64,000 bases of DNA from Podarcis pityusensis (lineage: Eukaryota): the NCBI GenBank assembly GCA_964106645.2, contig CAXKZF020000232.1; one strand, written 5' to 3'. The translations under genes and the position numbers were made by a program. The notes under the pieces were generated by a model. It saw nothing but the letters and a program-made list of their open reading frames with translations. It had not been told where the DNA came from and searched no databases. Positions 537 to 59,841 of the stretch are shown here, in pieces; the first letter of the stretch is position 1; each line of letters begins with the position of its first letter.

Positions 537-548
537 TTAGGAGCCCTA

Positions 549-863
549 ATGCAGGTCAAGCTCACAGGCGACTCTTGGCCTGCATGGCTCAAGGGTCACA
601 CGCTCAAAGTGGTTCACAAGCGAGACCACTGGTATGTCACTAGGGATAACGGCGACCACCGCTTCAATGGGTGGAACGTAGAGACCGGAAGCGACCGTTC
701 CGGCTTCGGTGGTGTGTTTGTGGAAGAGGACTCACCCCCGCCGAAGAAGGTCGGCTCCCCCGCCAAGATCATCGCGATCAAGTCTGCGATCGGTCGCGGT
801 CTCGAAGACGACACCGACCCCGCAGAAATCCTGAACACCATCCTCGACATCCTCGACAGTTAG
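549..863 (+). CDS. hypothetical protein
   Basis: ATG overlaps the TTAGGAGCCCTAA RBS motif. Confidence 0.75.
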   Translation: MQVKLTGDSWPAWLKGHTLKVVHKRDHWYVTRDNGDHRFNGWNVETGSDRSGFGGVFVEEDSPPPKKVGSPAKIIAIKSAIGRGLEDDTDPAEILNTILDILDS

Positions 864-871
864 GAGCCCTA

Positions 872-1288
872 ATGGGTTACACCACAGCGCAGATCAAGGG
901 GCTCCTGCTCTCGGCAGCGAGCCTCGCCGCAGACCTCCAGGGTCTCGGTGAAGAGGAGACCAAGGCTCAACTTCTCCAGGTTGAAGCGGAGTTCGATGTG
1001 TGGTACGATAGGCTCTCGACCGGTCACCGGATGGAGGACTACTACGGCAACACCGTGGCCCTTGCCAAGGGTGACAGGATCAAGCTCCTGGGCTATGACT
1101 GGGACGACGCGTACCTCAAGGACCTATGCGGTGGGCAAGGCACGATCCACACGATCACGGACTTCGATACCGACACGGACCCACTGTTCAAAGACAAGCT
1201 AGGCGACCACCGCTACGCATGTCGAGGCGAGAACAACAGCCGAGGCTTTGTCAAGGTGAACGAGGACGACGAGGAGGAAGATGAGTGA
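872..1288 (+). CDS. hypothetical protein
   Basis: Start reassigned to ATG 872 after the TTAGGAGCCCTAA motif. Confidence 0.7.
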   Translation: MGYTTAQIKGLLLSAASLAADLQGLGEEETKAQLLQVEAEFDVWYDRLSTGHRMEDYYGNTVALAKGDRIKLLGYDWDDAYLKDLCGGQGTIHTITDFDTDTDPLFKDKLGDHRYACRGENNSRGFVKVNEDDEEEDE

Positions 1289-2651
1289 GCGGCTGACTCC
1301 CGACTCAGAACAGGAAGCGGCCATCCAGCGGATGGTCGATGAGCCGACACGGGCGGCTCTGAATGCAAGTCAGTATGGCACGGGCAAGACACTCGTGACC
1401 ATTGAGGTAGCGGGTCGGCTTGGCGGTCGGATCAATCTGATCGTCGCCCCGCTGTTCACGAAGTATTCGTGGGAGACCTCGATCAAGACGCAGTACCCGG
1501 ACGCTAACGTGCGACACATCAATAGCCTCAAGCGTGGGAAGGAAGCGCTTGAGGCTATGCTCGCAGGTGAGGCTGGCTGGTACATCATCGGGCGTGAGTA
1601 CCTGATGTCTCGCTCCGTGGTGGAGCGGGTGCAGAAGTTCTCACCCAACATCGACTTCATGGCGTACGATGAGTGCGCGAAGTGGGCCAACCGCAAGTCG
1701 GTCGGGTTCAAGAACATGAAGAAGATCAAGCCTCAGTACCGCATGGCGTTGAGCGCCACGCCAGCGGCCAACAAGTTCGACGGGCTGTACGCCATCACGA
1801 AGTGGCTGTGGTCTGATCTCGTGCCGAACTCATACTGGTTGTGGGTCGGGACGTGGTGTGCCACGCAGGAGGACTACTTCTCTGGCACCTCCGTGGTCGG
1901 TGAGAAGGAGCCGGGCAAGTACGTGCAGCAACTGCCGTGCTACATTAGGCTCACTAAAGACTTCGGTGACCCGATCGAAATGGACATCGAGGTCGAGCTC
2001 TCCCCCAAGGAGCGCAAGGTCTACGACCAGTTCGAGAAGCGGTCGATCGTCTGGCTCAAGGACAACCCGATGGTTGCCAAGTTCCCGATCACCAAGCGCA
2101 TCAGGCTGAGACAGATGAGCCTCGGTGAGTTGGAGGTCGAGTACCTGGAAGATGGTACAGAGATCGTTGGCTTCCCCGAGGATATGAAGTCGAGCAAGTA
2201 CGACGCGCTCGAAGGCATCCTCAGCGAGTACCGAGAGCCCGCTCTGATCTTGACAGACAGCCAGAAGTACGCTAGAGTGGTAGTCAAGAGGCTGGTGGAA
2301 GACGGCTACGCGGCGATGGAGTGGTCGGGTGACGTGCCTGAGAAGGAACGACACGCGATCAAGGATGCGTTCGTGAACGACACGGGTGTGGACTACATCG
2401 TGGCAACCATCCCTGCAATCGGTGAGGGAGTGGACGGACTACAGCATCGTGCACGACTGATGATCTGGCTGTCCCGGTCGGACAACAACATGCTGAACAT
2501 GCAGGCGTTCCGACGCCTGTACCGCCGAGGCCAGAAGCACCAGGTTGTGAGCATCGACATCGTTGCTCGTGACACATACGACAAGGGACAACTGAGTGAC
2601 CTCATCACGAGGGAGCTTGTGATGAACGATAGCCTGAGAAGGGCTGGTTAG
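1281..2651 (+). CDS. SNF2/SF2-family DNA helicase
   Basis: GTGKT Walker A, YDEC Walker B, LSATP motif III, GEGVDGLQ and QAFRRLYRRGQ motifs. Confidence 0.9.
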   Translation: MSERLTPDSEQEAAIQRMVDEPTRAALNASQYGTGKTLVTIEVAGRLGGRINLIVAPLFTKYSWETSIKTQYPDANVRHINSLKRGKEALEAMLAGEAGWYIIGREYLMSRSVVERVQKFSPNIDFMAYDECAKWANRKSVGFKNMKKIKPQYRMALSATPAANKFDGLYAITKWLWSDLVPNSYWLWVGTWCATQEDYFSGTSVVGEKEPGKYVQQLPCYIRLTKDFGDPIEMDIEVELSPKERKVYDQFEKRSIVWLKDNPMVAKFPITKRIRLRQMSLGELEVEYLEDGTEIVGFPEDMKSSKYDALEGILSEYREPALILTDSQKYARVVVKRLVEDGYAAMEWSGDVPEKERHAIKDAFVNDTGVDYIVATIPAIGEGVDGLQHRARLMIWLSRSDNNMLNMQAFRRLYRRGQKHQVVSIDIVARDTYDKGQLSDLITRELVMNDSLRRAG

Positions 2652-2659
2652 GAGACCTA

Positions 2660-2968
2660 ATGTTCAAGCAGATCACAGAGGACGCAAAGGGACTGAGGTT
2701 CGGACAGGGACCGTGGGGTGAGGTGTTCGACACGGTGCTGACAGCAGTGCTCGTCGGCATCCCCATGTACCTGGCAGGACACGCCGCGGCGTCGGACTGG
2801 AACCCGACGTTCAACTTCATCATGGCGGCTCTGGTCACGGCGATCATGGGTGTCGGTGCGTTCGTTGGCTGGCACACCACCTTCATGTCGGGCCAGATCG
2901 ACCAGATCAAGAAGGACACGAAGCGTATGCTGACGCAGATGAGGACGGGACATGGCTTCAAGAGCTGA
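2660..2968 (+). CDS. membrane protein
   Basis: Two hydrophobic segments; RBS motif. Confidence 0.7.
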   Translation: MFKQITEDAKGLRFGQGPWGEVFDTVLTAVLVGIPMYLAGHAAASDWNPTFNFIMAALVTAIMGVGAFVGWHTTFMSGQIDQIKKDTKRMLTQMRTGHGFKS

Positions 2969-3161
2969 GCTCGAAGAGGAATGGCGCGAGTTCCAACTGT
3001 GGCAGCGCAACCAGGGACTTGAGTACCCGGACTACCTTGAGTGGCGTGACCTGATCATCGCCCGAGAGAACATGGCAACACTCAAGTCATTCATCGAAGG
3101 GTTCGATGATGAAGACGAGATCAAGGTGAGCGAACTGAGGGAGATCCTTAAGCATGTCTAG
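2952..3161 (+). CDS. hypothetical protein
   Basis: Coupled ORF. Confidence 0.6.
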   Translation: MASRAELEEEWREFQLWQRNQGLEYPDYLEWRDLIIARENMATLKSFIEGFDDEDEIKVSELREILKHV

Positions 3162-3468
3162 CATCTTCGGGTACATGGACCCAGACGACTTGGGCCGGTA
3201 CACGAAGCTGATCGACGCGATGGATGGGACAGAGCCTTGCAGCATCGAGCCCGATCTCTTCACAGGAGATTGGGTTCGAGGTGTAAAGGAAGAGACAGCG
3301 CAGGCACTCTGCGCTGATTGTCCCGTCCTTGATCTATGCCGAGACTACGCCGTACAGGCCAAGGAACCGTACCATGTGTGGGGCGGAACCACACCAACAT
3401 CAAGAGGCATCCCGAGAGGATACAGACCGTGGGCAGACCGCTCGAAGACGGACAACTCAAGTACCTAG
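3154..3468 (+). CDS. whiB: WhiB-family transcription factor
   Basis: Four Cys (C...CADCPV...C) and HVWGG motif. Confidence 0.9.
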   Translation: MSSIFGYMDPDDLGRYTKLIDAMDGTEPCSIEPDLFTGDWVRGVKEETAQALCADCPVLDLCRDYAVQAKEPYHVWGGTTPTSRGIPRGYRPWADRSKTDNSST

Positions 3469-4139
3469 TCACAGACATGCTCAACCATCCGTCTGAGCGA
3501 GACAACCAGCGACTTGTGGGGGCCAGCCAGATCGGTAACCCCTGCGACTTCTGCTTGGGCAACTCGATGGTCGGGCACGGACAGCGACGCAACAACTACT
3601 GGATGGGTGCCCGCATCGGCACCGCGATCCATGCGGCGCTGGAGACTGAGGCTGAGAAGCATGTGGATCGACCACGGCAGAATCAGTTCGAGGCTCTTAG
3701 GGGCGCTAAGATCGAGCAGAAGATCATCCTCGGTACCATCCAGGGGTACGGCACGATCAAGTCTAAGCCGGACCTGGTGCTGACAGAGCACGACCACCTC
3801 GTGGACTACAAGACCACGACGAAGGCGAAGCTTGCGAAGATGAAGGCGTCCGGCACCGTGCCGATCCAGTACGTCTACCAGCAGCAGCTCTACGCTTGGG
3901 GCCTCAACAACGACGGCATCAAGGTCAAGCGTATCTCGTTGGTGTTCATCGCTCGTGACGGCTCGAATGAGAACGACATCTGGGTACACTCGTTCGACTA
4001 CGATGAGTCCAAGGCACTCGCTGCTTGGGATCGTCTGGACGCGATCTGGAAGTACCTGGAAGAGAACAACCACGACACATCAGGCTTGACAAGTCACCAC
4101 GAATGCTGGTACTGTGTCAACATGCTAGGGAGGATCTAA
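3429..4139 (+). CDS. Cas4-like / PD-(D/E)xK exonuclease
   Basis: GASQIG.PC..C, GTAIH, KPD, DYKT, QQQLY, C-terminal CWYC; GTG start after GAGAGGA. Confidence 0.85.
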   Translation: MGRPLEDGQLKYLVTDMLNHPSERDNQRLVGASQIGNPCDFCLGNSMVGHGQRRNNYWMGARIGTAIHAALETEAEKHVDRPRQNQFEALRGAKIEQKIILGTIQGYGTIKSKPDLVLTEHDHLVDYKTTTKAKLAKMKASGTVPIQYVYQQQLYAWGLNNDGIKVKRISLVFIARDGSNENDIWVHSFDYDESKALAAWDRLDAIWKYLEENNHDTSGLTSHHECWYCVNMLGRI

Positions 4140-4141
4140 TC

Positions 4142-4525
4142 ATGCAGATTGACAACGTTCCGTCGATGGACGACGCCGACGAGATCGAGCGCGAAGCAGC
4201 GCGAGAGATCCTGATGCTCGAAGCAGAGATCAAGGAAGCGCAGGAGCGGGTGGCCGCACTCAAGTCCTACTTCAAGGACCCGAAGCGCTTCGGTCCCGGC
4301 AAGTACGAGCGGGGTCCGGTGGAGATCGTGGTGTCCACGAACCAGCGGATCAGCCAGGCCAAGGCTGAGCGCCACCTGTCGAAGACCCGACTCAACTCCA
4401 TTAGCACACCTAAGGTGGACACCAAGAAGGCGCGGGCGCTGCTGACGGAGACCGAACTGCGTGCCATCATGGACACGTACGACCACAAGATCGAGGTTCG
4501 CCTCGGGAAGGACGGCGCTCAGTGA
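4142..4525 (+). CDS. hypothetical protein
   Basis: GGGAGG RBS, coiled-coil N-terminus. Confidence 0.7.
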   Translation: MQIDNVPSMDDADEIEREAAREILMLEAEIKEAQERVAALKSYFKDPKRFGPGKYERGPVEIVVSTNQRISQAKAERHLSKTRLNSISTPKVDTKKARALLTETELRAIMDTYDHKIEVRLGKDGAQ

Positions 4526-4737
4526 ACCCCGAGGAACTGACACCGGAGCAGAGGGAAGCAGTCCAGCGACTGCTCCACCTGCACTACATCAAGGGCGTCG
4601 TTGACGCCGCAAAGAACCTCTCGGATACGTTCGCGGAACTTGGCGCGAGCACCGAGGTGGCAGTGGAAGCGCTGACACAACTGCTCAACTGGGCACAGGA
4701 CGAGACCAAGGAACAGGAAGAGGTAGCGAGTGAGTGA
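4522..4737 (+). CDS. hypothetical protein
   Basis: Coupled ORF. Confidence 0.6.
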   Translation: MNPEELTPEQREAVQRLLHLHYIKGVVDAAKNLSDTFAELGASTEVAVEALTQLLNWAQDETKEQEEVASE

Positions 4738-5494
4738 AGGTCTGAGCTTCGAGGGAGCGATCAAGAAGGCAACGGCGGTGGACAAGATCAACTCCGCGAT
4801 CATCTTCGGGGAGTCGGGTGTCGGTAAGACGATCCTCGCGGCATCCTCGGTAGAGATCGAGGACTACGCACCAGTGCTCATCCTCGACGTGGAGGGTTCG
4901 ACCGCAGGTGTGGGCCGCATCCACCCCGACGTGGACGTGCTGCCGATCGCAACCCATGCACACTTCGAGGCGGCTCTCGATGAGCTCCTGACGAAGGAGC
5001 ACAAGTACAAGACGGTGATCGTGGACACGTTCAACGTCGCGCAGAACCGGGCCGAGGCATTCTTCCGTGCCAAGCCCGAGAACGCCAACAACAAGTTCGG
5101 TGTGTGGGGCGACCTCAAGGTGTGGTCGATCGGCACGGCGCGTAAGCTTCACCACGCTCCGTTCACCTCATGGCTCATCTGCCACAGCACCACGGCAAAG
5201 GATGAGAACACCGGAGCCATGTCCACCACGGTCAAGCTTGCTGGTTCCAGCAAGGAAGACCTGCCCGCAGTCCACGACCTCATCGGCTACATGGAGAACG
5301 ACGTAGACGAGGACGGCAATGCCATCGCGGTGCTCCGTGTCGGTCGTCGCAAGGGCATCATCACCAAGAACCGGTTCGGCCTGGACGGCACGATCTTCCC
5401 CTCCGAGGGCAAGTCGTACCCCACGATGATCGACATTCAGATGGCGATTACCGCGAAGCAGGTCGAGCAGGAGCAGTCCGAAAACGAGGGTTGA
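4730..5494 (+). CDS. AAA_24 / Sak4-like ATPase (recombination)
   Basis: GESGVGKT, LILDVEGS, TVIVDT, KNRFG; lies between exonuclease and SSB. Confidence 0.85.
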   Translation: MSEGLSFEGAIKKATAVDKINSAIIFGESGVGKTILAASSVEIEDYAPVLILDVEGSTAGVGRIHPDVDVLPIATHAHFEAALDELLTKEHKYKTVIVDTFNVAQNRAEAFFRAKPENANNKFGVWGDLKVWSIGTARKLHHAPFTSWLICHSTTAKDENTGAMSTTVKLAGSSKEDLPAVHDLIGYMENDVDEDGNAIAVLRVGRRKGIITKNRFGLDGTIFPSEGKSYPTMIDIQMAITAKQVEQEQSENEG

Positions 5495-5519
5495 CATCCA
5501 GCACAGGGCGTGCTATGAT
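5491..5519 (+). promoter_or_regulatory. SigA-type promoter
   Basis: TTGACA-17nt-TATGAT with extended TG; TTAG-N5-CTAA site at 5534. Confidence 0.8.
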
Positions 5520-5546
5520 GTATACCTCAGGAGTTAGGAGCCCTAA

Positions 5547-5828
5547 ATGAGTACGACACCGTTCACGGAGACGTACGAACAGATCAGTCTCGCTTTCGAC
5601 CAGGGCTGGGCAGACTCCCAGTTCGAGAACGAGAACGACGACAAGAAGTACATCGACCTCATCGCGAGGGACGGTAACGGCAGGGTCTACATCAGCCTCA
5701 GCAGGGAGCAGGCAGCCGCCATGTGCGACAAGCTCCAGGAGGTCGTAGCCCAGCAGGATGCCTGGCTGGAGACGCGCCAGGCAAGCGCAGCAGACGCAAC
5801 AAGCACAACAGAGCAGGAGAACCAGTAA
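5547..5828 (+). CDS. hypothetical protein
   Basis: RBS motif followed by ATG. Confidence 0.7.
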   Translation: MSTTPFTETYEQISLAFDQGWADSQFENENDDKKYIDLIARDGNGRVYISLSREQAAAMCDKLQEVVAQQDAWLETRQASAADATSTTEQENQ

Positions 5829-6319
5829 TGGCACGTATCATCGCAGTCGGTCAGGCAGCCCTTGGCGACGGGGAGTTCACCCCGATCCCGGCAGGCACCC
5901 GCATCAAGGTGTCGGTCTACGACGTGAAGGAGGGCGTGGCAGGCCCGAACTCCAAGAACCCCGGCTCCGCTCAGTTCGAGTGGACCGCCAAGGTCACGGA
6001 GGAGGGGCAGTTCAAGGGTCGTGAGATCCGCTACAACTACGTCCCGCTCGACCCGAAGGTGGGTCACGCATGGAACCTGGCGGCGTTCGCCAAGGCGGTG
6101 GGCTGGCCCATCGATGACAAGGGCAACGTCGAGGTGCCGGACGACCTCCGCGACCTGCTCGGGACGGAGCTCCTGGCGAAGGTGAGCACCACCGACCCGA
6201 ACCGCGACGAGCAGAAGCGAGTCTTCAACCGCATCGACCGCGTGTTCCCGCTCCCGAAGGACGGTGGCGGCGGTGGCATCACCGAGGCTGCCAAGCCGAC
6301 GTGGGGCGACCTCAACTAG
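5828..6319 (+). CDS. ssDNA-binding protein (DUF669-like)
   Basis: F.PIPAG, F.GR.I motifs; Gly-rich tail with terminal aromatic residue; gene context. Confidence 0.7.
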   Translation: MARIIAVGQAALGDGEFTPIPAGTRIKVSVYDVKEGVAGPNSKNPGSAQFEWTAKVTEEGQFKGREIRYNYVPLDPKVGHAWNLAAFAKAVGWPIDDKGNVEVPDDLRDLLGTELLAKVSTTDPNRDEQKRVFNRIDRVFPLPKDGGGGGITEAAKPTWGDLN

Positions 6320-6338
6320 TCCCAACCTGTAGTACAAA

Positions 6339-6382
6339 CCCTGGCCCGCAGACCTCCCTCTGCGGGCCGGGGTCTTTCTCTT
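6339..6382 (+). terminator. intrinsic terminator
   Basis: GGCCCGCAGA/TCTGCGGGCC stem followed by a T-rich tract. Confidence 0.75.
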
Positions 6383-6408
6383 CCCACCACCTTTAGGAGA
6401 ACTAATTC

Positions 6409-8643
6409 ATGGAAGCACGCGAGTTCTTCGGACACATCTACAAGAACGCCGAAGGCTGGGCAGTCCTCGTGACCCCCGACCGCAGTGGCACACCGTCTGA
6501 GGAAACGTGGTTCCGGTACCCGGCTGAACTCGACCGGATGGTGGCCCGCGTCGAGGAGTACAGCCACACTGACGTGTGGTTCAGCCCCAACCTCTACGAC
6601 AAGCAGGACCGCACCAAGGAAGCCAGCAAGGTCACGCACGTTGCTGCTGCTGACGCGGACACCTGCCACCCCACCAACTTCCGAGTCCAGCCGAGCATCA
6701 CCGTGCAGACCAGCCCCGGTCGGTACCAGGTGTACTGGCTGCTCGTCGGCACGCAGAACCCGCACGAGGTGGCGAAGCTCAACCGTCGCATCGCTCAGGT
6801 CCACAAGGACGAGGGCTGTGACACGGCGTTCGTCAACGCGGCCAAGCTCATGCGTGTCCCCGGAACCTCGAACAACAAGCACCCCGGCGCGATCGTCGTC
6901 GTGGTGGACGACGAGGCTGACCGGCACACGTACCCGAAGATGGTCGGCAAGTACCCGGCGGCAGAGATCCCCGATGCACCGGAGCACGAGAGCAATAGTG
7001 TCGCTATCATGCCTGAGGGCATGGGTGCGTACATCGACAAGAACCGCAACATCGTCCTCAATGGACTGCCGAACACGCCAGCCCTCCGTGACCTCCTGTT
7101 CAAGGAACCGCGTGAGGGCAAGCGTAGCGAGGCACGGTTCAAGCTGCTGTGCGAACTGATCGACCTCGGTCTGGACGACGCTGACATCATGGCTGTCGCC
7201 TGGGACGCGCCGAACAACAAGTACCAGGAGGACGCACGAGGCCACGCCGGACTGTGGGATGAACTACAGAAGGCCCGAGGCATCATGGATGCTGAGGCTG
7301 CGAAGTACGACATCCCCGTGGGCCAGGAGGGTGAGCAGCAGCAGCAGAAGAAGTCCGAGCCTAAGATCCGTCGCAACACGTCGTTCCTCAAGACTGATGC
7401 AGAGCACGAACTCGTCCGCGAGAACGTCAACTTCATCGACCGCTGGGTGGACTGGGCTGCGACCAAGACGGACGCGCCGAGTGAGTACCACCGGGCGGCT
7501 GCCATGTCGCTCATGTCCTGCGTGTACTCTGAGTTCGGCCACGCGATCCCGAAGTTCGCACCCAAGGGTCTCAAGCTGAACCTGTGGTTCATGGTGCTGG
7601 GTCGCTCGACCAAGGACCGTAAGACCACGGCGCGTACGTACATGAACAACGCACTCCGAGACCTCCGGGTTGAGGGTGAGGACGGCTACGACTACCTGCT
7701 CCCTGACGACGTGACGCCTGGCGGAATCAGCCTGGCCCTCCACGACAGGGCGCACAAGGCTAGCCTGTACGACCGCGACGAGGCTCAGGGTCTGTTCAAG
7801 GAACTCATGTCACAGTCATACATGAGCGGTGGGCTCGAAGTGTTCACCAAGCTCTACGATGGCTGGTCTGGTGGACGGCTCCGAGCGTCTGGCGATAAGA
7901 AGCGCATGGACTCCGTGCCTGTCTCGTTCCTCATGTTCCTCACCGGTATCCTCACTGAGGTTGCCGACGTGCTGACCGTGACGAACTACCGCTCAGGCTT
8001 CCTGACCCGCTTCCTCTACGTCGTGGGCTCACGGCCTGAGGACTACGAATCGCCGCCCATCGAGCAGGCCACGGAGAGTGACGAGAAGGAGGATACAGTC
8101 TTCAAGTCGCTCATCGCACACCTGGATCGCAACCGCAGGTACTGGGAAATGTACGGCGGCAAGGGCGACACTCACCCCCTCCGTGTCGAGGACGACGCCT
8201 GGGTTCGCTTCCAGGCGTACGAGCGGGACGTGATTAGGACCGCTAATGAGAGCCGGTACGCTGAGATCATCGGCACGACCAGCGATCGTATGGTGATCAG
8301 CACGCTCAAGCTTGCGTGCATCCTGGCGATGGACGACAAGTGCATGAAGGTGCAGTTGAAGCACGTCCTCCAGGCTATCGCATACGCTGGTGAGTGGTTC
8401 GACAACGCGGCCAAGGTGGCGTCCATGATCTCTGAGTCCGAGTGGCAGAGGGATGTGGACCTGCTGGAGGACTTCATCGTAGCGAAGGGCGGCTCCGTGA
8501 CATACGGCATCGCCTACAAGCAGTTCCCGGACAAGCGTCCGTCCGAGTTCGATGAAATGGTGGGAGCACTGCAAAGCCAGGGACGTGTGGCCCGTATCAA
8601 GAACGGTGCCAAGTGGATTCTACAGATGGAAGAGGGTGACTGA
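6409..8643 (+). CDS. primase-polymerase (RepB-like) fused to DUF3987-like helicase
   Basis: ADAD, QTSPGRYQVYW, LMRVPGTSNNK; C-terminal GRSTKDRKTT, DRDE, SGFLTRF. Confidence 0.85.
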   Translation: MEAREFFGHIYKNAEGWAVLVTPDRSGTPSEETWFRYPAELDRMVARVEEYSHTDVWFSPNLYDKQDRTKEASKVTHVAAADADTCHPTNFRVQPSITVQTSPGRYQVYWLLVGTQNPHEVAKLNRRIAQVHKDEGCDTAFVNAAKLMRVPGTSNNKHPGAIVVVVDDEADRHTYPKMVGKYPAAEIPDAPEHESNSVAIMPEGMGAYIDKNRNIVLNGLPNTPALRDLLFKEPREGKRSEARFKLLCELIDLGLDDADIMAVAWDAPNNKYQEDARGHAGLWDELQKARGIMDAEAAKYDIPVGQEGEQQQQKKSEPKIRRNTSFLKTDAEHELVRENVNFIDRWVDWAATKTDAPSEYHRAAAMSLMSCVYSEFGHAIPKFAPKGLKLNLWFMVLGRSTKDRKTTARTYMNNALRDLRVEGEDGYDYLLPDDVTPGGISLALHDRAHKASLYDRDEAQGLFKELMSQSYMSGGLEVFTKLYDGWSGGRLRASGDKKRMDSVPVSFLMFLTGILTEVADVLTVTNYRSGFLTRFLYVVGSRPEDYESPPIEQATESDEKEDTVFKSLIAHLDRNRRYWEMYGGKGDTHPLRVEDDAWVRFQAYERDVIRTANESRYAEIIGTTSDRMVISTLKLACILAMDDKCMKVQLKHVLQAIAYAGEWFDNAAKVASMISESEWQRDVDLLEDFIVAKGGSVTYGIAYKQFPDKRPSEFDEMVGALQSQGRVARIKNGAKWILQMEEGD

Positions 8644-49364: not shown

Positions 49365-49375
49365 GAGCACTAAAC

Positions 49376-50551: not shown

Positions 50552-50590
50552 TCGACACCAACCCGCAGTACCCAACAGTTAGGAGCCCTA

Positions 50591-51321: not shown

Positions 51322-51472
51322 TGGAACTCGCATCGCTCGCTCTCGTGTTCCTGCTGGGCATCGCAATCGGGGCAGCCCTGATGAACGTGCTCAGCAACCA
51401 CATCAAGTAGCAAGACCGGGGGGATTAGGGACCCTAATCCCCCCACGCAGCATCTACCTAAGGAGACACACC

Positions 51473-52084
51473 ATGACCAACACCACCCTCGGCACCGTGG
51501 ACCACGCTGCCGCCACGTTCTGGAAGACCGACACCACCGGCAAGGGCCACCTCCAGCGAGGTGCCGCCTTCCACGCCGCCGTCGCCTCGCTCGTCCAGGA
51601 GGGCGAGAAGAAGGGCAACGCGCAGAAGATCATCGCGGAGGCCGTCGCGGAGAGCGCCCCGGCCCACGAGAAGAAGTTCGGCTCGGCCACCGTCAGCCAG
51701 TACAACGCGTCCTACGCGCTCATGCTGGAGGAGACGAGCAACTTCCGGCCCGTGCAGTCCACCGCGGACCTGTACGCCGTCGTCCACAAGGCGTACGCCG
51801 CCAGCATGGGCGTCGAGAACCTGCGCGCGATCCTGTCGGGCTACACCGAGACGGACCTCGCGATCGCCGCTGTCGGCGCGCTCAAGCGTCCGGGCCAGGA
51901 GCCCAAGGGCGAGGGCGAGGAGGAGCGCAAGGGTCGCGGTTCGTTCGGCCTCAAGGCCGCGCTGACCGCCCTCGCCAAGATCCAGGACCACGACTGGTCC
52001 GACGACGAGAAGCACCAGCTCTTCGAGGCGCTGATCGCCACGACCGTCGCCGTCCAGCCCGACGTGCAGGAGGACGGCGAGTGA
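51473..52084 (+). CDS. hypothetical protein (paralog of 43823..44401)
   Basis: AAGGAG RBS. Confidence 0.75.
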   Translation: MTNTTLGTVDHAAATFWKTDTTGKGHLQRGAAFHAAVASLVQEGEKKGNAQKIIAEAVAESAPAHEKKFGSATVSQYNASYALMLEETSNFRPVQSTADLYAVVHKAYAASMGVENLRAILSGYTETDLAIAAVGALKRPGQEPKGEGEEERKGRGSFGLKAALTALAKIQDHDWSDDEKHQLFEALIATTVAVQPDVQEDGE

Positions 52085-52275
52085 TGATCTTCCTCGCGAT
52101 CCTCTGCTTCCTGATCTCGTGGGTGTGCGGCTACTTCGGCCTGCACCCCATCCTGTCGGCGGTCGTCAACGGCTCCGACATCAGCACCGCGCAGGCGCTG
52201 TTCAGCGCCGTGCTGCTCGCGATCTGGATCTGGTTCTCGATCCTCGCCGGTCAGGCGTTCGCTGCACGGGATTAG
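52081..52275 (+). CDS. membrane protein
   Basis: Two TM segments. Confidence 0.6.
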   Translation: MMIFLAILCFLISWVCGYFGLHPILSAVVNGSDISTAQALFSAVLLAIWIWFSILAGQAFAARD

Positions 52276-52323
52276 GACTCCTAATCCCCACTCCACCAAC
52301 CACAATAGAAAGCAGGACAACAC

Positions 52324-52536
52324 ATGGCAAGCAACAAGAAGCGTCCCACGTTCCGTGAGTCGTACGAGTACGACAAGGTGCGGGTCACGCCGCTCCACAA
52401 CGGCGGTGCGTACTTCGTCACGAGCAACGGACGCTCGATGGTCGAGATCGGCCTCAGCAAGAAGCAGATCAAGGAGCTGATCCGGCAGCTCAAGCGGGCC
52501 ACCACGCTCACGGAGCGGGAGAGGGAGTGCTTCTGA
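52324..52536 (+). CDS. hypothetical protein
   Basis: RBS plus ORF. Confidence 0.65.
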   Translation: MASNKKRPTFRESYEYDKVRVTPLHNGGAYFVTSNGRSMVEIGLSKKQIKELIRQLKRATTLTERERECF

Positions 52537-52856
52537 TGCGCGACTGGTTCCGCAAGGTCGGGCGGGCCATCGCGTCCGCCCCTGACCGCAAGGGCTGGTA
52601 CCTGTTCTGGCTGATCTGGGATGCAGCGTACATGCTGTACCTCGGCGCTCGGCTGGACAACTACATCGCAGAGGGTGTCCTCTGGATGTGGTTCCTCATG
52701 GTCGCGCTGTTCTTCGGCCTGATGATCTGGATGTTCTTCCAGGCGTGGCGTCTGGCCTACGACAAGGGCTGGGATGAGCACGATGCACTCGTGAACCTCG
52801 CACAGAAGCTTCGCGAGATCCACATGAAAGCGGCTGGCAGCCACCCCACCAAGTAG
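52536..52856 (+). CDS. membrane protein
   Basis: Two TM segments. Confidence 0.6.
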   Translation: MRDWFRKVGRAIASAPDRKGWYLFWLIWDAAYMLYLGARLDNYIAEGVLWMWFLMVALFFGLMIWMFFQAWRLAYDKGWDEHDALVNLAQKLREIHMKAAGSHPTK

Positions 52857-52868
52857 TTAGGAGCCCTA

Positions 52869-53426
52869 ATGACACCCGAGCAGGCAGTCGAGTACCTGAA
52901 CGGCAAGTACCGTTCGTACGATGAGCGAGCAGTCAGGTACCGGCTGTCGGCGTACGCCATGATCCTCATGGGCCTCGAAGAGGATGACAGCATCATCGAC
53001 TTCGGCGGTGGTGAGGCCGAGCTTGAGAGGTGCCTCCGTGAGGAGTTCGGGTGGACGGGTGTCTACACCAACGTGGACTACTCGACGGGCATGGACATCA
53101 AGACGATCCTCAACGATTTCGACAGCCGTACGTCGTACGTCCATGACTTCGTGGCGTCGCTGGAGGTGGTCGAGCACTTCGACACGATGTGGGCGAAGTT
53201 CATGCTCGACCGCCTCCCGAGGTACGCTCGCAAGGGCGTCGTGCTGACCACCCCCAACCCGCACGTACAGAACATCTACGAGATGGACGACACGCATGTG
53301 ACGCCGATCGGGCCACAGCGGCTGGAGGTGTACGGGTACACTGTCGAGGAGCACATGCTCTACGACGGGTACTACTCGCAAGGACAGGTCGATGGGCTTG
53401 TGGCCTATCAGAAGGGGCGGGCATGA
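52869..53426 (+). CDS. class I SAM-dependent methyltransferase
   Basis: IIDFGGGEA, SLEVVEH, LTTPN. Confidence 0.75.
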   Translation: MTPEQAVEYLNGKYRSYDERAVRYRLSAYAMILMGLEEDDSIIDFGGGEAELERCLREEFGWTGVYTNVDYSTGMDIKTILNDFDSRTSYVHDFVASLEVVEHFDTMWAKFMLDRLPRYARKGVVLTTPNPHVQNIYEMDDTHVTPIGPQRLEVYGYTVEEHMLYDGYYSQGQVDGLVAYQKGRA

Positions 53427-53580
53427 CCAACCGCTTAGAGTTCATCGTCACCAAGACGAAGGACGGTAAGTTCACCACCAAGTACAACCGCAAGACTTTC
53501 AGTGCCTCGACGCTCCGTGCGTTGGACAGGGCGCTGACGAAGGCTGATGTTCCTGATCACAGAACGTTCAGAGTCCAGCC

Positions 53581-53609
53581 TTGACAACCAACCAACCATG
53601 TGCTACTGT
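53581..53609 (+). promoter_or_regulatory. SigA-type promoter
   Basis: TTGACA-17nt-TACTGT with extended TG. Confidence 0.65.
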
Positions 53610-53646
53610 ATTCATACAGCCAGCCACCCACTGTTAGGAGCACTAA

Positions 53647-54183
53647 ATGCTGCACATCGCATCCGACTGGACCCGTGACCAGATCGACACCGCCCTCGCT
53701 GAGCTCGCCCCCGTCGTGGAGGTCCTGGGCGGCGAGTTCCGCTCGTTCGAGCAGGAGCACCACGGCGAGCCCGTCCGCGCCGCGAACTGGAACGAGTGGA
53801 TCGCGGAGAACCTGAGCCTCTTCATCCTCGACCCGGAGCACGACGCCGACGCCAAGGAGTCGGACCTGGCGGCGGTCTTCCTCGTCGGCATCGGCACGGA
53901 CCTGGGCCAGTGCCTGCACATCGCCAGCCTGCTCGGCATGTTCGACCCGAACGAGCTCAACGCGTTCCGCGAGGAGGGCGACAAGCTCACGGAGACGCAG
54001 ATCAAGGAGCACCTGATCACGGCGAACCTCGCGTTCGTCAAGGCGCGTCAGACGGTCATCGACATCGAGACCGCCAACCGCAACGAGCAGGGCATCCCGC
54101 TCGACGTGGAGCAGGACGACGTGGAGGCCGTGGACCTCACCGAGGACCGCCTCCGCACCATCTACGGCCTCGACGCCGAGTAG
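53647..54183 (+). CDS. acidic hypothetical protein
   Basis: RBS motif. Confidence 0.7.
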   Translation: MLHIASDWTRDQIDTALAELAPVVEVLGGEFRSFEQEHHGEPVRAANWNEWIAENLSLFILDPEHDADAKESDLAAVFLVGIGTDLGQCLHIASLLGMFDPNELNAFREEGDKLTETQIKEHLITANLAFVKARQTVIDIETANRNEQGIPLDVEQDDVEAVDLTEDRLRTIYGLDAE

Positions 54184-54228
54184 TCACCACCACCACCAAC
54201 CCACCCACCAAGAGTTAGGACCCCTAAT

Positions 54229-54816
54229 ATGGAGAAGTTCGAGAACACCCACCACCAGCACCCGATCACCTTCTCGGACGGCGAGACGTTCATCGAGGTC
54301 GAGGGCCAGCGCTTCAGCGCGGAGGAGGTCATCCGCAAGCTGGCTGAGGCTGCTGCTGACGAGGACGCGCTGTACGACACGCCCGAGGGCGAGGACCTGC
54401 CCGAGACCGACCTGACCGACGAGGAGACCGAGCGCCTGGTCGAGGCACTGGGCGGGATCACCGAGACGATCACCAACACCATCGGCTACTTCGCGGAGCC
54501 GGTGACGCGCGAGGTCTTCCGGGACACCTTCAAGATCGACCAGATCCAGATGAACGAGGACGGCCAGCTCAAGCAGGTCAACCGGTACCTCATCCGCAAC
54601 GCGTGGGAGGCGCTGGGCGTGCAGGTGAGCCGCATCTTCCTCGTCATCACCGGCAACAAGGCGCAGGCGATCAAGGCTGCCAGCGCGGCGTTCCCGGACC
54701 GCGAGATCACCGACGCGTACCTGGACAACGCGCTCGACCAGATCGGTGAGGCTCTGGCAGTCGCATCGAAGGCCGCGAAGGAGATCAGCGCCGCTCGTGG
54801 AGAGGGCGGTCTGTGA
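54229..54816 (+). CDS. hypothetical protein
   Basis: RBS motif. Confidence 0.7.
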   Translation: MEKFENTHHQHPITFSDGETFIEVEGQRFSAEEVIRKLAEAAADEDALYDTPEGEDLPETDLTDEETERLVEALGGITETITNTIGYFAEPVTREVFRDTFKIDQIQMNEDGQLKQVNRYLIRNAWEALGVQVSRIFLVITGNKAQAIKAASAAFPDREITDAYLDNALDQIGEALAVASKAAKEISAARGEGGL

Positions 54817-55310
54817 CATCAGCGATCGTCACTGCGTACGATGAGTACGTAGCGGCTCGTGTGGAGGCCCGTCGTGCTGCGCGAGAGCGTGTCACGGCGG
54901 AACTCCGCCCCCACCTTGCCGCCTTCGGTAAGGTCGTCCAGGAGGCACAGAACGATGGACTCAGCATCGCTGAGGTCGCTCGTGTCCTCGACATCAAGAA
55001 CCGCAACTTCATCTACGACGCCAAGCGTGCGTACGCAGAGCAGAGCGGCGAGGACTACAAGGTCCGCGAGTACGTTAGGAGCCCTAAGGTGGCAGTAGAA
55101 GAGCGCATCATCCCCGCCGACCCCGAGCCGGAGTACAAGATCCAGGTGATCGGTGACGACTGCTTCGAGGTCACGTTCCTGGGCGAGGACTACTTCATCA
55201 CGACCGATGAGGACGGCCACCTGATCTTCCCTGAGGAGTGGGCGGACTTCGATGCCACCACCCGTCAGATCGTGAAGAAGATCATCGCGGACGTGAAGGG
55301 ACTTGTGTGA
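54813..55310 (+). CDS. putative HTH protein
   Basis: GLSIAEVARVLDIKNRNFIY; contains an internal TTAGGAGCCCTAA. Confidence 0.6.
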   Translation: MTSAIVTAYDEYVAARVEARRAARERVTAELRPHLAAFGKVVQEAQNDGLSIAEVARVLDIKNRNFIYDAKRAYAEQSGEDYKVREYVRSPKVAVEERIIPADPEPEYKIQVIGDDCFEVTFLGEDYFITTDEDGHLIFPEEWADFDATTRQIVKKIIADVKGLV

Positions 55311-55517
55311 GCCGACTACCCCGCTCTCGTGGCGGTAAGACACCCGTAACGGTGGACGTGGTGCTGACCCAGCAGAAGGGTCTGCCCCGCGTCCGCCTTC
55401 GGATGGGCCACGAGAACCAGTACAACAGCAAGAACACAGACATGGACGAGGAGGAGACAGAGGCTCTGATCGTCCTCCTGCAATACAAGCTAGCCGAGTT
55501 GAGAGGTGAGGTGTGAC

Positions 55518-55769
55518 ATGTTCGCAATGAAGTTCGATGACAAGATGCGTGCGGCGCGAGCCAAGGGCATCGAGTACAAGAAGATCGAGACGCTGTACGA
55601 GAACACGCCCGAGTTCGAAGCGATGTGGGAGGCGTACGTCGCGAACAACGACCCGCTCTACAACATCGTGACCGAGGACGATGGGCGCACGCACACGTTC
55701 TACTACATCCACCTGCCGACCACCGTGGTCGAGCCGACGAAGGAGGTCGCCCATGCCGAAGCTGGTTGA
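55518..55769 (+). CDS. hypothetical protein
   Basis: GAGGTG RBS. Confidence 0.6.
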   Translation: MFAMKFDDKMRAARAKGIEYKKIETLYENTPEFEAMWEAYVANNDPLYNIVTEDDGRTHTFYYIHLPTTVVEPTKEVAHAEAG

Positions 55770-56106
55770 CGAGCACAAGTGCGAGGACTGCAACGACGAG
55801 ACCTGGTTCGTCCGGCTCGCTGAGCCTCAGGCTGTCCGGGTCGCACCGGATGGCAACAAGCCGGGGTACATGGCGTACGCAGACTACGCTGTGATCAAGC
55901 TCCACAATGGCACGTACGGGAAGGACGAGAACAAGAAGAAGTTCTCCGACACGTCCGTGTGGGCCGCCGATGAGAACGAGCAGACGTTCCCCGGACCCAT
56001 CTACCACATCAACCGGGCACGCACCCTCGATGAGGTCCTGTGGACCCTCGGCGGCGAGTACACCGACAACCGACCGGAAGGCAAGCTCAACAATGGCACT
56101 GCGTAG
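55753..56106 (+). CDS. hypothetical protein
   Basis: AGGAGGT RBS. Confidence 0.65.
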   Translation: MPKLVDEHKCEDCNDETWFVRLAEPQAVRVAPDGNKPGYMAYADYAVIKLHNGTYGKDENKKKFSDTSVWAADENEQTFPGPIYHINRARTLDEVLWTLGGEYTDNRPEGKLNNGTA

Positions 56107-56452
56107 TTTCAACGAGGACGTTCCCGCCGACAACAAGCACGGCGGGGGCGCACCCTCACCCGAGGAGCAGCGTGCTATGATGCAGCCGCTCGTCAAGGCA
56201 GCACTCGACCGGGCGATCGCAGAGATCCTGCACGCCGCTGAGGCTGCGATTAAGGAGGAGCGGGCGAATGGCAGGCCCGGAGACAAGTGGGACGAACTGC
56301 TCCTGCTGATCAGCAGCCTGACTCACATCCCTGCCGACGACAGGCTCCGTCTCGTCCTCGTGGCACGGCTGGCATTCCTGCTCGTGGCGGCTCGCAACCT
56401 GCTGCCGCCGAACACCGACATCGACCCGAACACCACGCAGTTCCGGGATTAG
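56093..56452 (+). CDS. hypothetical protein
   Basis: Coupled ORF. Confidence 0.55.
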   Translation: MALRSFNEDVPADNKHGGGAPSPEEQRAMMQPLVKAALDRAIAEILHAAEAAIKEERANGRPGDKWDELLLLISSLTHIPADDRLRLVLVARLAFLLVAARNLLPPNTDIDPNTTQFRD

Positions 56453-56569
56453 GGTCCCTAACAACCACGGAGTTTGATGAAAGTTTTGCAATACTTTTGT
56501 TAAGTTCCGTGTAGCACTACCCCGAAAAAATTTTTCGGGTTCACACATCATAGTACGGGAGGGTACACC

Positions 56570-57610
56570 ATGAACGATCGACTCACCATCACCGACATGC
56601 GCGAGCTGCTTGAGAAGAAGAAGCAGGGCGCGCAGGTCCGACTCACCGAGGACGGCCAGGGCGTCGAGCTCATCGGCAAGACCATGGACAAGCTCCGCGA
56701 GGAGATCAACGCGGGCATGGAGCCCGTCGTCGCAGAGACGATCGGCAAGATCGTCGCCCGCGACATGGGCAAGCTGGAGAAGGCCGTCCGTCAGGCGGTG
56801 ACCGAGCTGGAGCAGCGCGCCGAGGAGGTGCGCCCCATCGAGGTCAACATCAAGGGCGTCAAGAAGAAGCTCGAAGGCGTTAGGCACGCTAACTTCGACA
56901 AGCTCCTGACCTCGGTGCAGGTCGGCCAGCCCACGCTGCTCGTCGGTCCCGCCGGTACCGGCAAGACGCACTCGGCGGCGCAGATCGCAGACGTGCTCGG
57001 CCTGGAGTTCTACTCGATCTCGGTCGGTGCTCAGACCTCGAAGTCCGACCTCGTGGGCTACATGCACGCGGCGGGTGGCTACGTCTCGACACAGTTCCGC
57101 GAGGCGTACGAGAAGGGCGGCGTCTTCCTGCTCGATGAGGCGGACGCTGGCAACAGCAACGTCCTGATCCTGCTGAACGCGGCTCTGTCGAACGGCTACA
57201 TGGCGTTCCCGGACAAGATGGTCAAGGCGCACGAGGACTTCCGTCTGATCGCGTCGGCCAACACGTTCGGTCACGGTGCGAGCCGTCAGTACGTCGGTCG
57301 CAACCAGCTCGACGCGGCAACGCTCGACCGCTTCACGGTGCTGACGTGGGACATCGACGCTCGCGTCGAGAAGTCGCTCGCTGGTGACCAGACCAAGTGG
57401 TACCAGGTGGTGCTCGCCGTCCGCAAGGAGGCGATCGACAACCTCCAGCTCCGCGTCGTGATCAGCCCGCGTGCCACCAAGCGTGGTGCTGAGCTGCTGG
57501 CGGCAGGCATGGACTTCGACACGGTGCTGGAAATGGCACTCACGGCGAACCTGCCCGGCGACTCGCAGGACGGCCTGCGGGCGCTCGCTCGGACCACCTG
57601 GAACAAGTAG
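56570..57610 (+). CDS. MoxR/CobS-like AAA ATPase
   Basis: GPAGTGKT, LLDEAD, YVGRNQLDAATLDRF, ISPRA. Confidence 0.88.
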   Translation: MNDRLTITDMRELLEKKKQGAQVRLTEDGQGVELIGKTMDKLREEINAGMEPVVAETIGKIVARDMGKLEKAVRQAVTELEQRAEEVRPIEVNIKGVKKKLEGVRHANFDKLLTSVQVGQPTLLVGPAGTGKTHSAAQIADVLGLEFYSISVGAQTSKSDLVGYMHAAGGYVSTQFREAYEKGGVFLLDEADAGNSNVLILLNAALSNGYMAFPDKMVKAHEDFRLIASANTFGHGASRQYVGRNQLDAATLDRFTVLTWDIDARVEKSLAGDQTKWYQVVLAVRKEAIDNLQLRVVISPRATKRGAELLAAGMDFDTVLEMALTANLPGDSQDGLRALARTTWNK

Positions 57611-57984
57611 TCAGGTGTACGCTCCAAGGACAGGGGGACCAGGAAACTGGTCCCCCTCTCCGTCCCCGTGGGTGGGGGCGGCACCGTACCCCCAGCAGTG
57701 GTCGAAAGACTTCCGCATCGTAGCGTACTGGGGTCAGAGACCTGAGATCCAGATTCGTGAGATCACATGGGGCAAGAGGGGTCTAGTGCACTCCGACTCG
57801 CTCGTCCTCAAGAGGTTCGTCGTGCTCGATGGAAGGTGCGGATACTGTTCTGACGAGCACTCAACCGTCGAGGAAGCATACGACTGCGCGCAAGAGGCAG
57901 CGATGCTGGCACTCATCCTCAAGAGGGATGGCTCGAAAGAGAAGCAAGACTTCATTAGGATCGCTAAAGAAAGGGGTCATAGCA

Positions 57985-58848
57985 ATGGCTAAGATCATGG
58001 AGGTTGGCAACAACCGTAAGCTCCACCTTGAGTTCAACTCGGTGGGCGAGGTGTTCCGAGCGATCGACAAGAAGGGCTGGACGCCGCAGAAGAGCCAGTC
58101 GTCAGACGCTCGCGGTCGTGACGGCGGCTTCTACACGTTCGGTTCGCTGGCAGAGGCGACGGACGTGTTCCGCAACCACCCCGAGCGCATCCGCAAGTTC
58201 ATTATGAACGACGTGAAGCTCGTCGCTCCGAACTCTCCGGGTAAGGAGATCGAGTACGACGTGACCGGTGACTTCATCGACATGGATCGGTTCATGGAGG
58301 GCGTGCCCGAGGTCTTCGGCAACGTCACGATGGGCAACCCGCGCAACGTGTTCTGCACGATCAACCTGCTCGACGTGTTCGTCTCGTACACCGACCCGGC
58401 ATACGTGCTGGCGAAGCTCTCTCGTGTCGTCCGTCTCGTGGACTGGCTTGAGAACCAGGGTGTCCGGTGCCAGATCGTCACGGCGGCTGACTCGGAGATC
58501 ATGTTCATGTCGGCAGTCGTGAAGCGGTTCGCTGAGCCGGTGGACCTCAACGAAATCTGCGTGGCCCTCCACCCGGACTGGCTGCGTCGGATCAAGTTCC
58601 TGCTCATGGAGCAGTCGAACACCTGGTCGTACGGCTACGGTCGTGCCGACACGTACGACAACAACATGCTCAAGTACCAGTCGCGTCCCGAGGACGGCAT
58701 CTACGTCTACGTCGGTGGCTACTTCCCGCCGACGACGGAGTTCATGGAGGAGCAGTTCGATCAGATCGAGAAGGACATCGCTGAGATCCTGGCGGCTGGC
58801 ATGACGTTCAACGACAAGCCGCTCGTCGTCCGAGGCGGTCGGTACTAA
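57985..58848 (+). CDS. vWA-like partner of the AAA ATPase
   Basis: YDVTG..D..RF..G.PE, LVDWLE..G, HP.WLRR; near the MoxR-like gene. Confidence 0.6.
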   Translation: MAKIMEVGNNRKLHLEFNSVGEVFRAIDKKGWTPQKSQSSDARGRDGGFYTFGSLAEATDVFRNHPERIRKFIMNDVKLVAPNSPGKEIEYDVTGDFIDMDRFMEGVPEVFGNVTMGNPRNVFCTINLLDVFVSYTDPAYVLAKLSRVVRLVDWLENQGVRCQIVTAADSEIMFMSAVVKRFAEPVDLNEICVALHPDWLRRIKFLLMEQSNTWSYGYGRADTYDNNMLKYQSRPEDGIYVYVGGYFPPTTEFMEEQFDQIEKDIAEILAAGMTFNDKPLVVRGGRY

Positions 58849-58996
58849 TGGCGAACCGGGGCAACACCAAGGCCCAGGTCCAGGCGTACATCCAGGACTT
58901 GATCGACGCCCGCTGCCCCGGTAAGATCGGGTCTGCGGAAGACCTGGCAGAGGCAGTCATGTCCACCATCGACAACGCAATCGGTTAGGAGCCCTA

Positions 58997-59290
58997 ATGA
59001 ACGAAGCACTAGTTGCCGCACTGCGTCCGCACCTCAACGGCTACTACCTGATCGTGGAGGTGCAGGAAGGGCCGGAAGGTAGGGTGTACCGCAGTCGTCC
59101 CGAACTGCACCGCGCACTCAGCACATGTCGAGGCATCATCACGCGAGAGTCCAATTACAGCCAGACTGCCAAGTCTCACTACGCCACCTACTCATGGGAC
59201 GCCGAGGATGAGGGCTGGAAGCTCGAAGATTACGTGCCGCAAGGCACACCCGCCAGTGAGTTCCCCTGGAAGAACAAGAAGCAGAGTTAG
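58997..59290 (+). CDS. hypothetical protein
   Basis: RBS motif. Confidence 0.7.
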   Translation: MNEALVAALRPHLNGYYLIVEVQEGPEGRVYRSRPELHRALSTCRGIITRESNYSQTAKSHYATYSWDAEDEGWKLEDYVPQGTPASEFPWKNKKQS

Positions 59291-59298
59291 GAGTCCTA

Positions 59299-59841
59299 AT
59301 GGTTACCAAGAAGCAGGAGAAGGAAGAGGATCAGTACGTTCTGGCGTTCGATCCGGGCGGCACGACGGGCATGGCACTCGTCCGCTTCAACAGCAAGGAG
59401 GTCGTCCTCTCGGTGCTGGCACAGATCGAGGACGGTGTGCCTGGCTACTACGACAACCTCGTGGGTGTCCCGGCAGGCTACGGCACCAACACCCACCTCG
59501 TGTCCGAGAAGTGGGTGGAGACCGGCGTCAAGGGTGCCGACCACACGCCGCTCGTGATCGAGGGTGTGCAGTACGCGTTCTGGCCTGACCAGATGCAGTA
59601 CCAGACGCCCTCGCAGAAGCACGACATCACCGACGAACTCCTCCAGGAGCTCGGTGTGTGGACGCCGGGTAAGCCGCACCAGATGGACGCGCTCCGTCAC
59701 GCTCTCGTGTGGCTCCGCAACCAGATGCACATGCCCACGCTCAAGATGCTCGGCGGTGAGGATGGCGAGCCTAAGCCGATGGAGAAGGACGGCGAGGCTG
59801 CTGAGGGCATCAGCACTGGCGTCAAGCCCCGAGCCCGGTGA
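59299..59841 (+). CDS. RuvC-like Holliday junction resolvase (may extend to 60211 through indels)
   Basis: LAFDPGGTTGMA, VSE, HQMDALRHA. Confidence 0.75.
   Translation: MVTKKQEKEEDQYVLAFDPGGTTGMALVRFNSKEVVLSVLAQIEDGVPGYYDNLVGVPAGYGTNTHLVSEKWVETGVKGADHTPLVIEGVQYAFWPDQMQYQTPSQKHDITDELLQELGVWTPGKPHQMDALRHALVWLRNQMHMPTLKMLGGEDGEPKPMEKDGEAAEGISTGVKPRAR

Follow-up and report, generated by a model that had tools for sequence, protein, structure and literature searches.

What does a short palindrome do when it recurs throughout a phage genome, inside genes as well as between them, and which protein reads it? This question is raised by contig CAXKZF020000232.1 of the Podarcis pityusensis assembly GCA_964106645.2, from which a stretch of 64,000 bases (the window) was analysed for the 13-base dyad TTAG-N5-CTAA. 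The window holds one circularised phage genome with a unit of 60,333 bp, bases 1-3667 recurring at 60334-64000, and this phage makes up an entire contig inside a 1.5-Gb eukaryote assembly. Judged by its sequence, it is the complete genome of an uncultured actinophage of a soil bacterium, a distant relative of the Arthrobacter cluster AQ phages, which are its closest cultured kin (terminase 42%, capsid 40%). It encodes a helicase, WhiB, a Cas4-like exonuclease, Sak4, a RepB'-type primase, DNA polymerase I and a siphoviral late arm. The early arm lies on the plus strand and the late arm on the minus strand; both run outward from about 42.9-46.5 kb, a block that we infer to hold the genome ends or terminal-repeat region.

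The exact dyad was found 54 times in the window and 50 times per unit, because four copies fall within the repeated bases. A preliminary description of this sequence had likewise counted 50 perfect copies in the unit and had estimated that fewer than one would be expected; the recount agreed, and dinucleotide shuffles gave a mean of 0.07 (maximum 1 in 100 shuffles). When spacers of 0-15 were compared for the TTAG and CTAA arms, N5 was the sole length present. The description of the arms as fixed and the spacer as free had to be amended on two points: all 12 one-mismatch copies deviate solely at an outermost base, and the spacers are biased, owing to Shine-Dalgarno constraints in intergenic copies and codon constraints in intragenic ones. 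Allowing A or T at the outer position (WTAG-N5-CTAW, hereafter W-sites) gave 61 copies per unit. The copies are distributed as follows.

537..59299, unstranded: 50 strict dyads, starting at 537, 860, 1945, 2648, 3697, 4401, 5534, 6393, 8234, 9635, 14246, 15837, 17252, 19940, 20948, 22484, 23240, 26670, 28188, 29799, 35046, 35863, 38734, 40030, 42276, 43787, 44499, 44524, 44874, 45239, 45488, 45767, 46555, 47080, 47610, 47861, 48661, 49361, 50579, 51425, 52272, 52857, 53634, 54215, 55075, 56449, 56880, 57955, 58985 and 59287
6995..45433, unstranded: 11 relaxed copies with an outer A or T, at 6995, 11911, 13129, 13361, 15507, 24170, 25675, 30663, 31308, 34397 and 45421
10343, 11247, and 16224/21602 type: three further one-mismatch copies with an outer G
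43787..46567, unstranded: the densest cluster, in the divergent block between the late and early arms, with 2.42 W-sites/kb compared to 0.66/kb in the late arm

The typical spacing of 1-3 kb given previously was too wide, as strict sites are separated by a median of 860 bp (range 25-5247). The relaxed copies occupy the widest gaps, lowering the maximum gap from 5247 to 3089 bp, and the 61 W-sites are spaced more evenly than random (coefficient of variation (CV) 0.65, P=0.0004). At 51415-51447, 52264-52290 and 56443-56461, dyads are lengthened into perfect inverted repeats with arms of up to about 12 bp, and these may double as RNA hairpins.

The copies inside genes are these.

1945..57967, unstranded: 19 intragenic strict copies, in helicase, primase, polymerase, tail, tape measure, portal and other genes

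Seventeen of these had been listed before and all were confirmed to lie within open-reading frames (ORFs), to which copies at 45239 and 57955 were added. All 19 share one codon phase, NTT-AGN-NNN-NCT-AAN. The second codon phase open to the dyad would require a TTA codon, and TTA is absent from 51,105 nt of curated coding sequence (CTA occurs 58 times, TTG 19 and ATA 2). The enrichment survived the codon-preserving shuffling that had been proposed as a check, with 19 copies observed compared to a mean of 0.11 under synonymous resampling (maximum 2 in 500) and 0.04 expected when codon order was shuffled. The intragenic dyads draw on the rare codons ATT, CTT and AGG. An effect was also seen on the proteins themselves: the peptide compatible with a site, [LFIV][SR]x[APTS][KN], occurs 31 times where 11.3 ± 3.5 are expected, and 19 of the 31 permissive peptides actually hold a site, so the peptide excess roughly equals the number of sites. 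Of the five site peptides in the tape measure protein, four are retained by a 76% identical relative, and the site-compatible ISYAN of this phage reads IGYAN in two relatives at 61-63%. These results indicate that the dyads inside genes are under selection at both the codon and the amino-acid level.

The remaining 31 copies are intergenic and mostly embed a Shine-Dalgarno sequence, with AGGA present in 22 and AGGAG in 17, and with an ATG lying 0-4 nt beyond the site in 19. Most sites are not located at the consensus promoters found, and sites also occur deep in late genes, distant from such promoters. The 4-bp stem of the dyad folds in single-stranded DNA at 42 of the 50 sites (mean -2.35 kcal/mol), and in the intragenic copies the stem is not extended, the inner pair being complementary in 7/19 and the flanks in 6/19. 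Given the fixed arms, the single spacer length, the orientation independence and the lack of stem extension, the 13-mer is well supported by its sequence as a double-stranded DNA site of a dimeric protein. The original proposal of such a site rather than an RNA signal is well supported by the codon controls, the fixed spacer length, the arms kept in a relative and the unextended stem within genes.

That relative is a contig from run X5, about 89% identical to the phage (71 differences over 633 bases), in which the site at 35863 keeps both arms while the spacer differs. Conservation in relatives, another check suggested earlier, extends this far, whereas more distant relatives carry other dyads. 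More than two strict copies were present in none of the 110 capsid-related loci examined (of 121, taking loci 3 kb or longer; many occur in more than one collection), and W-sites in the two complete relatives numbered 0 compared to 1 in the control (G001) and 4 compared to 6 (G002). G001, with a 67% identical capsid, carries TTA-N5-TAA (34 copies, control 7), mainly as TTAR-N3-YTAA and often fused to a Shine-Dalgarno sequence, and 14 of these 34 sit in DNA outside that used for motif discovery. In relatives at 59-61%, TGAC-N8-GTCA is enriched over controls (13 vs 2 in G004, 8 vs 1 in G005 and 6 vs 1 in G008). Lineages within this clade use different dyads, with at least three geometries. The GC content of the relatives spans 47-61%, so their hosts probably differ. 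In the cultured phages Amigo and WaterT no enriched dyad was seen in 50 kb each; an IMG/VR scan with the Shine-Dalgarno-fused 15-mer returned 12 loci, none of them enriched, in which 1-3 strict sites were present, and an IMG/VR search with the single terminase protein gave no matches. Loci L081, L096, L020 and L082 show possible lineage dyads (TTTY-N8-RAAA, TAA-N9-TTA, GGG-N6-CCC) that were picked post hoc and are unconfirmed on unseen DNA, with 10, 12 and 13 copies in L081, L020 and L082 compared to Markov means of 1.0, 2.0 and 4.5.

Which protein might bind the dyad was addressed by comparing the phage's small helix-turn-helix (HTH) and helical proteins with those of the relatives. Three candidates had been named in the preliminary description, the proteins at 8643, 13866 and 54813, and only the last has gained ground; the paralog pair at 43823 and 51473, like the differing dyads of the relatives, goes beyond that description.

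54813..55310, plus strand: 165-aa HTH protein, the top candidate binder, with the HTH near residues 40-80; its gene holds the 55075 site
43823..44401, plus strand: 192-aa all-helical, HTH-like protein, the second candidate and paralogous to 51473; its gene is the first early one and lies between sites 43787 and 44499/44524
51473..52084, plus strand: 203-aa paralog of 43823, with a model resembling a ParB/Spo0J/SopB/KorB DNA-binding domain followed by a linker and a C-terminal helix pair
8643..9023, plus strand: 126-aa protein encoded between primase and polymerase, a minor candidate with no Pfam or PHROG match
13866..14249, plus strand: 127-aa HTH protein in the tRNA cluster (Pfam HTH_23, E=1e-8), whose ORF ends in the 14246 site, as previously noted

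The 54813 protein matches Pfam HTH_28 at E=0.0016, below the cut-off, and has no match among cultured phages. Its family is present in all three complete genomes including this one, with a 31% identical homolog in G001 that is flanked by G001's own dyads; in G002 its HTH region is matched (E=7.8e-8) beside two G002 sites. The putative recognition helix reads NRNFIYD in 54813 and NRTFIYE in G001, a near-unchanged segment that parallels the near-identical half-sites TTAG in this phage and TTAR in G001. Based on its sequence, 54813 ranks as the best candidate, because it is kept in both complete relatives, its putative helix is conserved and the rival candidates are weaker; we give its family somewhat less than an even chance of being the binder.

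The 43823 and 51473 proteins are 28% identical and belong to a narrow family, which gave 12 matches, two of them spurious repeats, in 1.84 billion representatives. Searches of IMG/VR, GTDB and cultured phages turned up no member, sequence searches of PDB and PHROG likewise gave none, and Atlas searches returned just nameless viral clusters and DUF3102 leads scoring below 0.9. The AF2 model of 51473 has a predicted local distance difference test score (pLDDT) of 81.7, and that of 43823 a pLDDT of 91. For 51473, ParB-family chains make up five of the top seven VIA rows (Z 4.7-5.8, root-mean-square deviation (rmsd) 4.2-7.1), namely Spo0J (Z 5.8, rmsd 4.7, 106 aligned), ParB-parS (5.5), SopB (4.9) and KorB (4.7) among them. 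The 43823 model resembles assorted HTH domains, the best HTH rows being DnaA domain IV (Z 5.6) and SopB (Z 4.6). A CTPase (ParBc) domain is absent from both proteins, whose models are all-helical and which have no Pfam match. A homodimer prediction for 51473 scored 0.17, which gives no verdict and was not used as evidence. In a full hidden Markov model (HMM) scan, the first early gene of G001 appeared as a syntenic, divergent homolog of this family with G001 dyads on both sides. The pair ranks second, as a possible but unlikely binder. In the sub-clade with TGAC-N8-GTCA, and in G002, the first early gene covered encodes an HExxH protein, which we take to be SprT-like, and not a 43823 homolog (L022 784-1545, L021 428-1291).

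The 8643 protein, a minor candidate, has weak positional counterparts in G001 and G002, but Amigo, which shows no array, also has a same-size gene between a likewise placed primase and its polymerase. Binding by 13866 is unlikely, and there is a small chance that another phage protein is responsible. The terminase small subunit, whose HTH hardly changes between lineages with different dyads, was rejected for that reason.

Taking these results together, we favour a reading in which an early, phage-encoded HTH dimer coats the phage's own genome and tags it as self, with a probability of roughly 0.4. The dimer would bind the double-stranded 13-mer about once per kilobase, covering the whole genome whatever the gene boundaries or direction. 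By tagging self DNA in a sequence-specific manner, such a coat would organise or shield the phage genome, for instance while it replicates or when nucleases or competing phages attack, and every lineage would have its own site plus its own protein. At early-gene starts, where the site is merged with the Shine-Dalgarno/stop/start junction, the bound protein may damp early transcription as a side role. Many sites lie in late genes, at a coding cost and away from promoters, and thus position in the genome seems weightier than position relative to genes. An HTH dimer should be able to read this geometry, since the site predicted for GcvA, a LysR-type dimer, has the same core. A more far-reaching version, in which a lytic actinophage clade has diversified its self-recognition so that each lineage has a private palindrome and a co-evolving early HTH dimer reading only that word, is considerably more doubtful.

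Several results weigh against a self-recognising coat. Evenness beyond random is not seen for the strict 50 sites (P=0.15), the W-motif was defined after inspection of the data, and G001's 34 sites are unevenly spaced (CV 0.99, with a 7.6-kb gap). The comparison covers only three complete genomes, and among the relatives the G002 array is weak (TGAC-N8-GTCA 6 vs control 3; 6/5 vs 1/1 with a refined pattern) and the partial genome G003 (68% capsid) has no clear dyad in the tests run. As for the binder, co-distribution with the array, as seen for 54813, would be expected of many early genes. The fold scores of 43823 and 51473 are all under VIA's Z 8 caution line, G001's homolog of this pair scores poorly (E=0.002 in a set of 687 ORFs and 0.018 in one of 5797, with an hhalign probability of 36%), and the family was not detected in G002 by genome searches similar to those that had missed G001's homolog. 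Finally, a site lies within 45 nt of 21 of the 46 plus-strand starts compared to 2 of the 26 late starts, which fits regulation.

This last bias is an argument for a stoperator-like global repressor, a phage HTH dimer that would use the sites as operators or roadblocks to silence early genes late in infection, or would keep the genome silent in a carrier state, excluding superinfecting kin. Also consistent with repression are the site just downstream of the strong promoter 5491, the relaxed site across the -10 of promoter 13105, the uneven spacing in G001, the candidate genes that hold sites or are flanked by them, and lineage-specific sites resembling immunity groups. Stoperators of Cluster A and CA phages, according to excerpts of PMC4351075 and PMC13313380, are 13-14-bp sequences in many copies, often over gene termini, that are asymmetric and oriented with transcription, and they are tied to a repressor and lysogeny. 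The site here is a perfect dyad with 19/50 copies intragenic, and no integrase, repressor or ParA was found among 84 scanned ORFs (PHROG, Pfam), the two ATPases of the phage being AAA/CobS-like and neither a cognate ParA, although HTH proteins lacking annotation are present. Searches of bacterial genomes found no 51473-family relative and one distant capsid match, and roadblocks within tail and tape-measure genes would be costly for lytic growth. We favour the self-recognising coat over this type of repression, which seems possible but not probable.

An alternative that we consider improbable is that the sites act on a host protein (LysR-type, another dimeric regulator or a nucleoid factor), recruiting or titrating it, and vary as hosts vary. 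The core equals a LysR-type operator pair predicted for E. coli GcvA at one promoter region, ATTAG-n5-CTAAT, and the phage dyad fits its T-N11-A geometry (excerpt of PMC5002191); this paper was the sole match in a literature search for the exact motif. Differing hosts among the relatives would agree with such a role, as would the organisation of mycobacteriophage replication zones by host Lsr2 (excerpt of PMC10066036). However, GcvA is gammaproteobacterial while this is an actinophage, carrying WhiB and AQ-like genes, with an actinobacterium as host; no LysR gene was found among the phage ORFs, at least three geometries occur inside one clade, and a phage HTH, the 54813 family, tracks the arrays. 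Lower still we rank the idea that the RepB'-type primase uses the sites as start signals, on either strand and at intervals of roughly one Okazaki fragment. Sequence-specific phage primases exist, such as that of NrS-1, and a primase of this type is present:

6409..8643, plus strand: RepB'-type primase (Pfam RepB_primase, E=6e-8), with 40-59% identical orthologs in four of five relatives

The spacing near 1 kb and the stem formed in single-stranded DNA would suit priming, but the stem is not extended in genes, the 58% ortholog in G001 accompanies a different spacer length, Amigo has its primase without an array and site density peaks at the genome end. T5 transfers its DNA in two steps, and a protein encoded in the terminal repeat might bind the sites on DNA entry and ratchet a similar second-step transfer. 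The position of 43823 as first gene past the terminal block, the limited largest gap and the classification of both complete relatives as having direct terminal repeats can be accommodated by such a ratchet, which needs neither sequence specificity nor lineage switching and of which no sign of two-step injection was seen; it appears scarcely plausible. An artefact or by-product of codon bias, ribosome-binding-site consensus or assembly might be suspected from the AGGA in intergenic copies and from the eukaryote assembly of origin, and is refuted by the codon controls, the single spacer length, the arms kept in an independent relative and the use of rare codons.

Of the arrays described so far, that of Cluster O mycobacteriophages comes nearest, a 17-bp dyad, TGTTCGG-N3-CCGAACA, with 34 copies, about one-third intragenic, in phages without integrase or lysogens (excerpt of PMC4351075). 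In both cases more than 30 symmetric copies with invariant arms lie between and within genes, denser toward the early end, and the excerpted text likewise proposes a site for a dimeric protein. The sequence is not the same, the arms here are shorter (4+5+4) and many copies are fused to the Shine-Dalgarno or start; in addition, codon and amino-acid selection is quantified here and related genomes switch dyads. In profile comparison, Corndog gp90 was not linked by sequence to the 43823/51473 family. Plasmid RK2 carries 12 copies of the 13-bp palindrome OB over about 60 kb, bound by KorB, an HTH dimer with a linker plus a domain for dimerisation at the C terminus (excerpt of PMC13768133). The scattered 13-bp palindrome is similar, as may be, weakly, the modelled DNA-binding domain of 51473, whereas the phage has 50-61 sites with TAG/CTA halves spaced otherwise, no N-terminal CTPase clamp and no ParA partner. 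The start-associated sequences (SAS) of Cluster K and EF phages and the 18-bp inverted repeats of Cluster EG Microbacterium phages are conserved and lie at or just upstream of the ribosome-binding sites of certain genes (excerpt of PMC7302621). SAS motifs are asymmetric and confined to gene starts, unlike the symmetric and partly intragenic dyads here; the EG repeats number 8-10 and are intergenic, while here the Shine-Dalgarno sits inside a dyad that also lies deep in genes.

The Cluster AP Arthrobacter phages SilentRX (L136/L137), Tank (L138) and BruhMoment (L139) were found to carry a dispersed dyad of the GGGTCG-N6-CGACCC type, denser at the right end, with TCGG-N4-CCGA counts of 40 in 65 kb, 25 in 40 kb and 22 in 20 kb. 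These phages are lytic and have terminal repeats, in or near which a conserved last gene lies, and they differ in their GC-rich longer arms and unrelated genome. Their array goes unmentioned in the excerpted text of PMC5513430 and PMC12509547. A resemblance between the AP terminal protein and 51473 was rejected, as it consisted of one weak Foldseek row (E=1.4) and profile comparison gave no support. A literature search for phage work on ParB-like proteins, terminal repeats and palindromes found none. Some lytic phages encode Lsr2 in their terminal repeats (excerpt of PMC10066036), which by analogy may be a precedent for terminal DNA organisers.

Other features of the genome were recorded alongside. 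DNA polymerase I is divided into two ORFs, 8989-10431 and 10605-11360, with a stop at 10431 and about 170 bp between; the first stops in a motif region where an unbroken enzyme would continue, and a split gene, an intron or an assembly error is possible. Twenty tRNA genes lie at 11749-15174 and 17104-17176, with HTH gene 13866 within the cluster, behind strong sigma-70-like promoters at 11708, 13105 and 16985. At 46180-46290 a long (TA)n-rich tract between GC-rich inverted arms, followed by more AT-rich DNA, is likely a replication origin or end-processing region. A 19-mer at 43149-43172 fits the DtxR/IdeR iron-box consensus at 18/19 positions, with an overlapping 16/19 copy 5 bp further; these are the genome's only matches with four or fewer mismatches, and iron control near the genome end is possible. 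DtxR/IdeR was rejected as the reader of the dyad, as its dimer unit has N6 spacing and the strict N6 count is 0. The small early proteins at 198-536 and 58997-59290 appear by eye to be a second paralog pair with alike C-terminal motifs.

The binder and function of dispersed dyad arrays in lytic actinophages have been a puzzle since Cluster O. What the phage described here adds is selection on protein sequence, a clade whose members switch sites, and two candidate binder groups, and its DNA signal is strong enough to change the sequences of structural proteins. The clade makes the puzzle directly testable, as it offers at least three natural site variants together with two small candidate proteins whose homologs occur in those very genomes, so that cross-binding can be checked with synthetic DNA and phage culture is unnecessary. 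If the self-recognition reading is true, the coat would mark self DNA for protection or compartment building and would discriminate against both host DNA and rival relatives. It would amount to a methylation-free self-tag, paid for in rare codons and amino-acid changes, and a system of private palindromes would account for the arrays of Clusters O, AP and EG.

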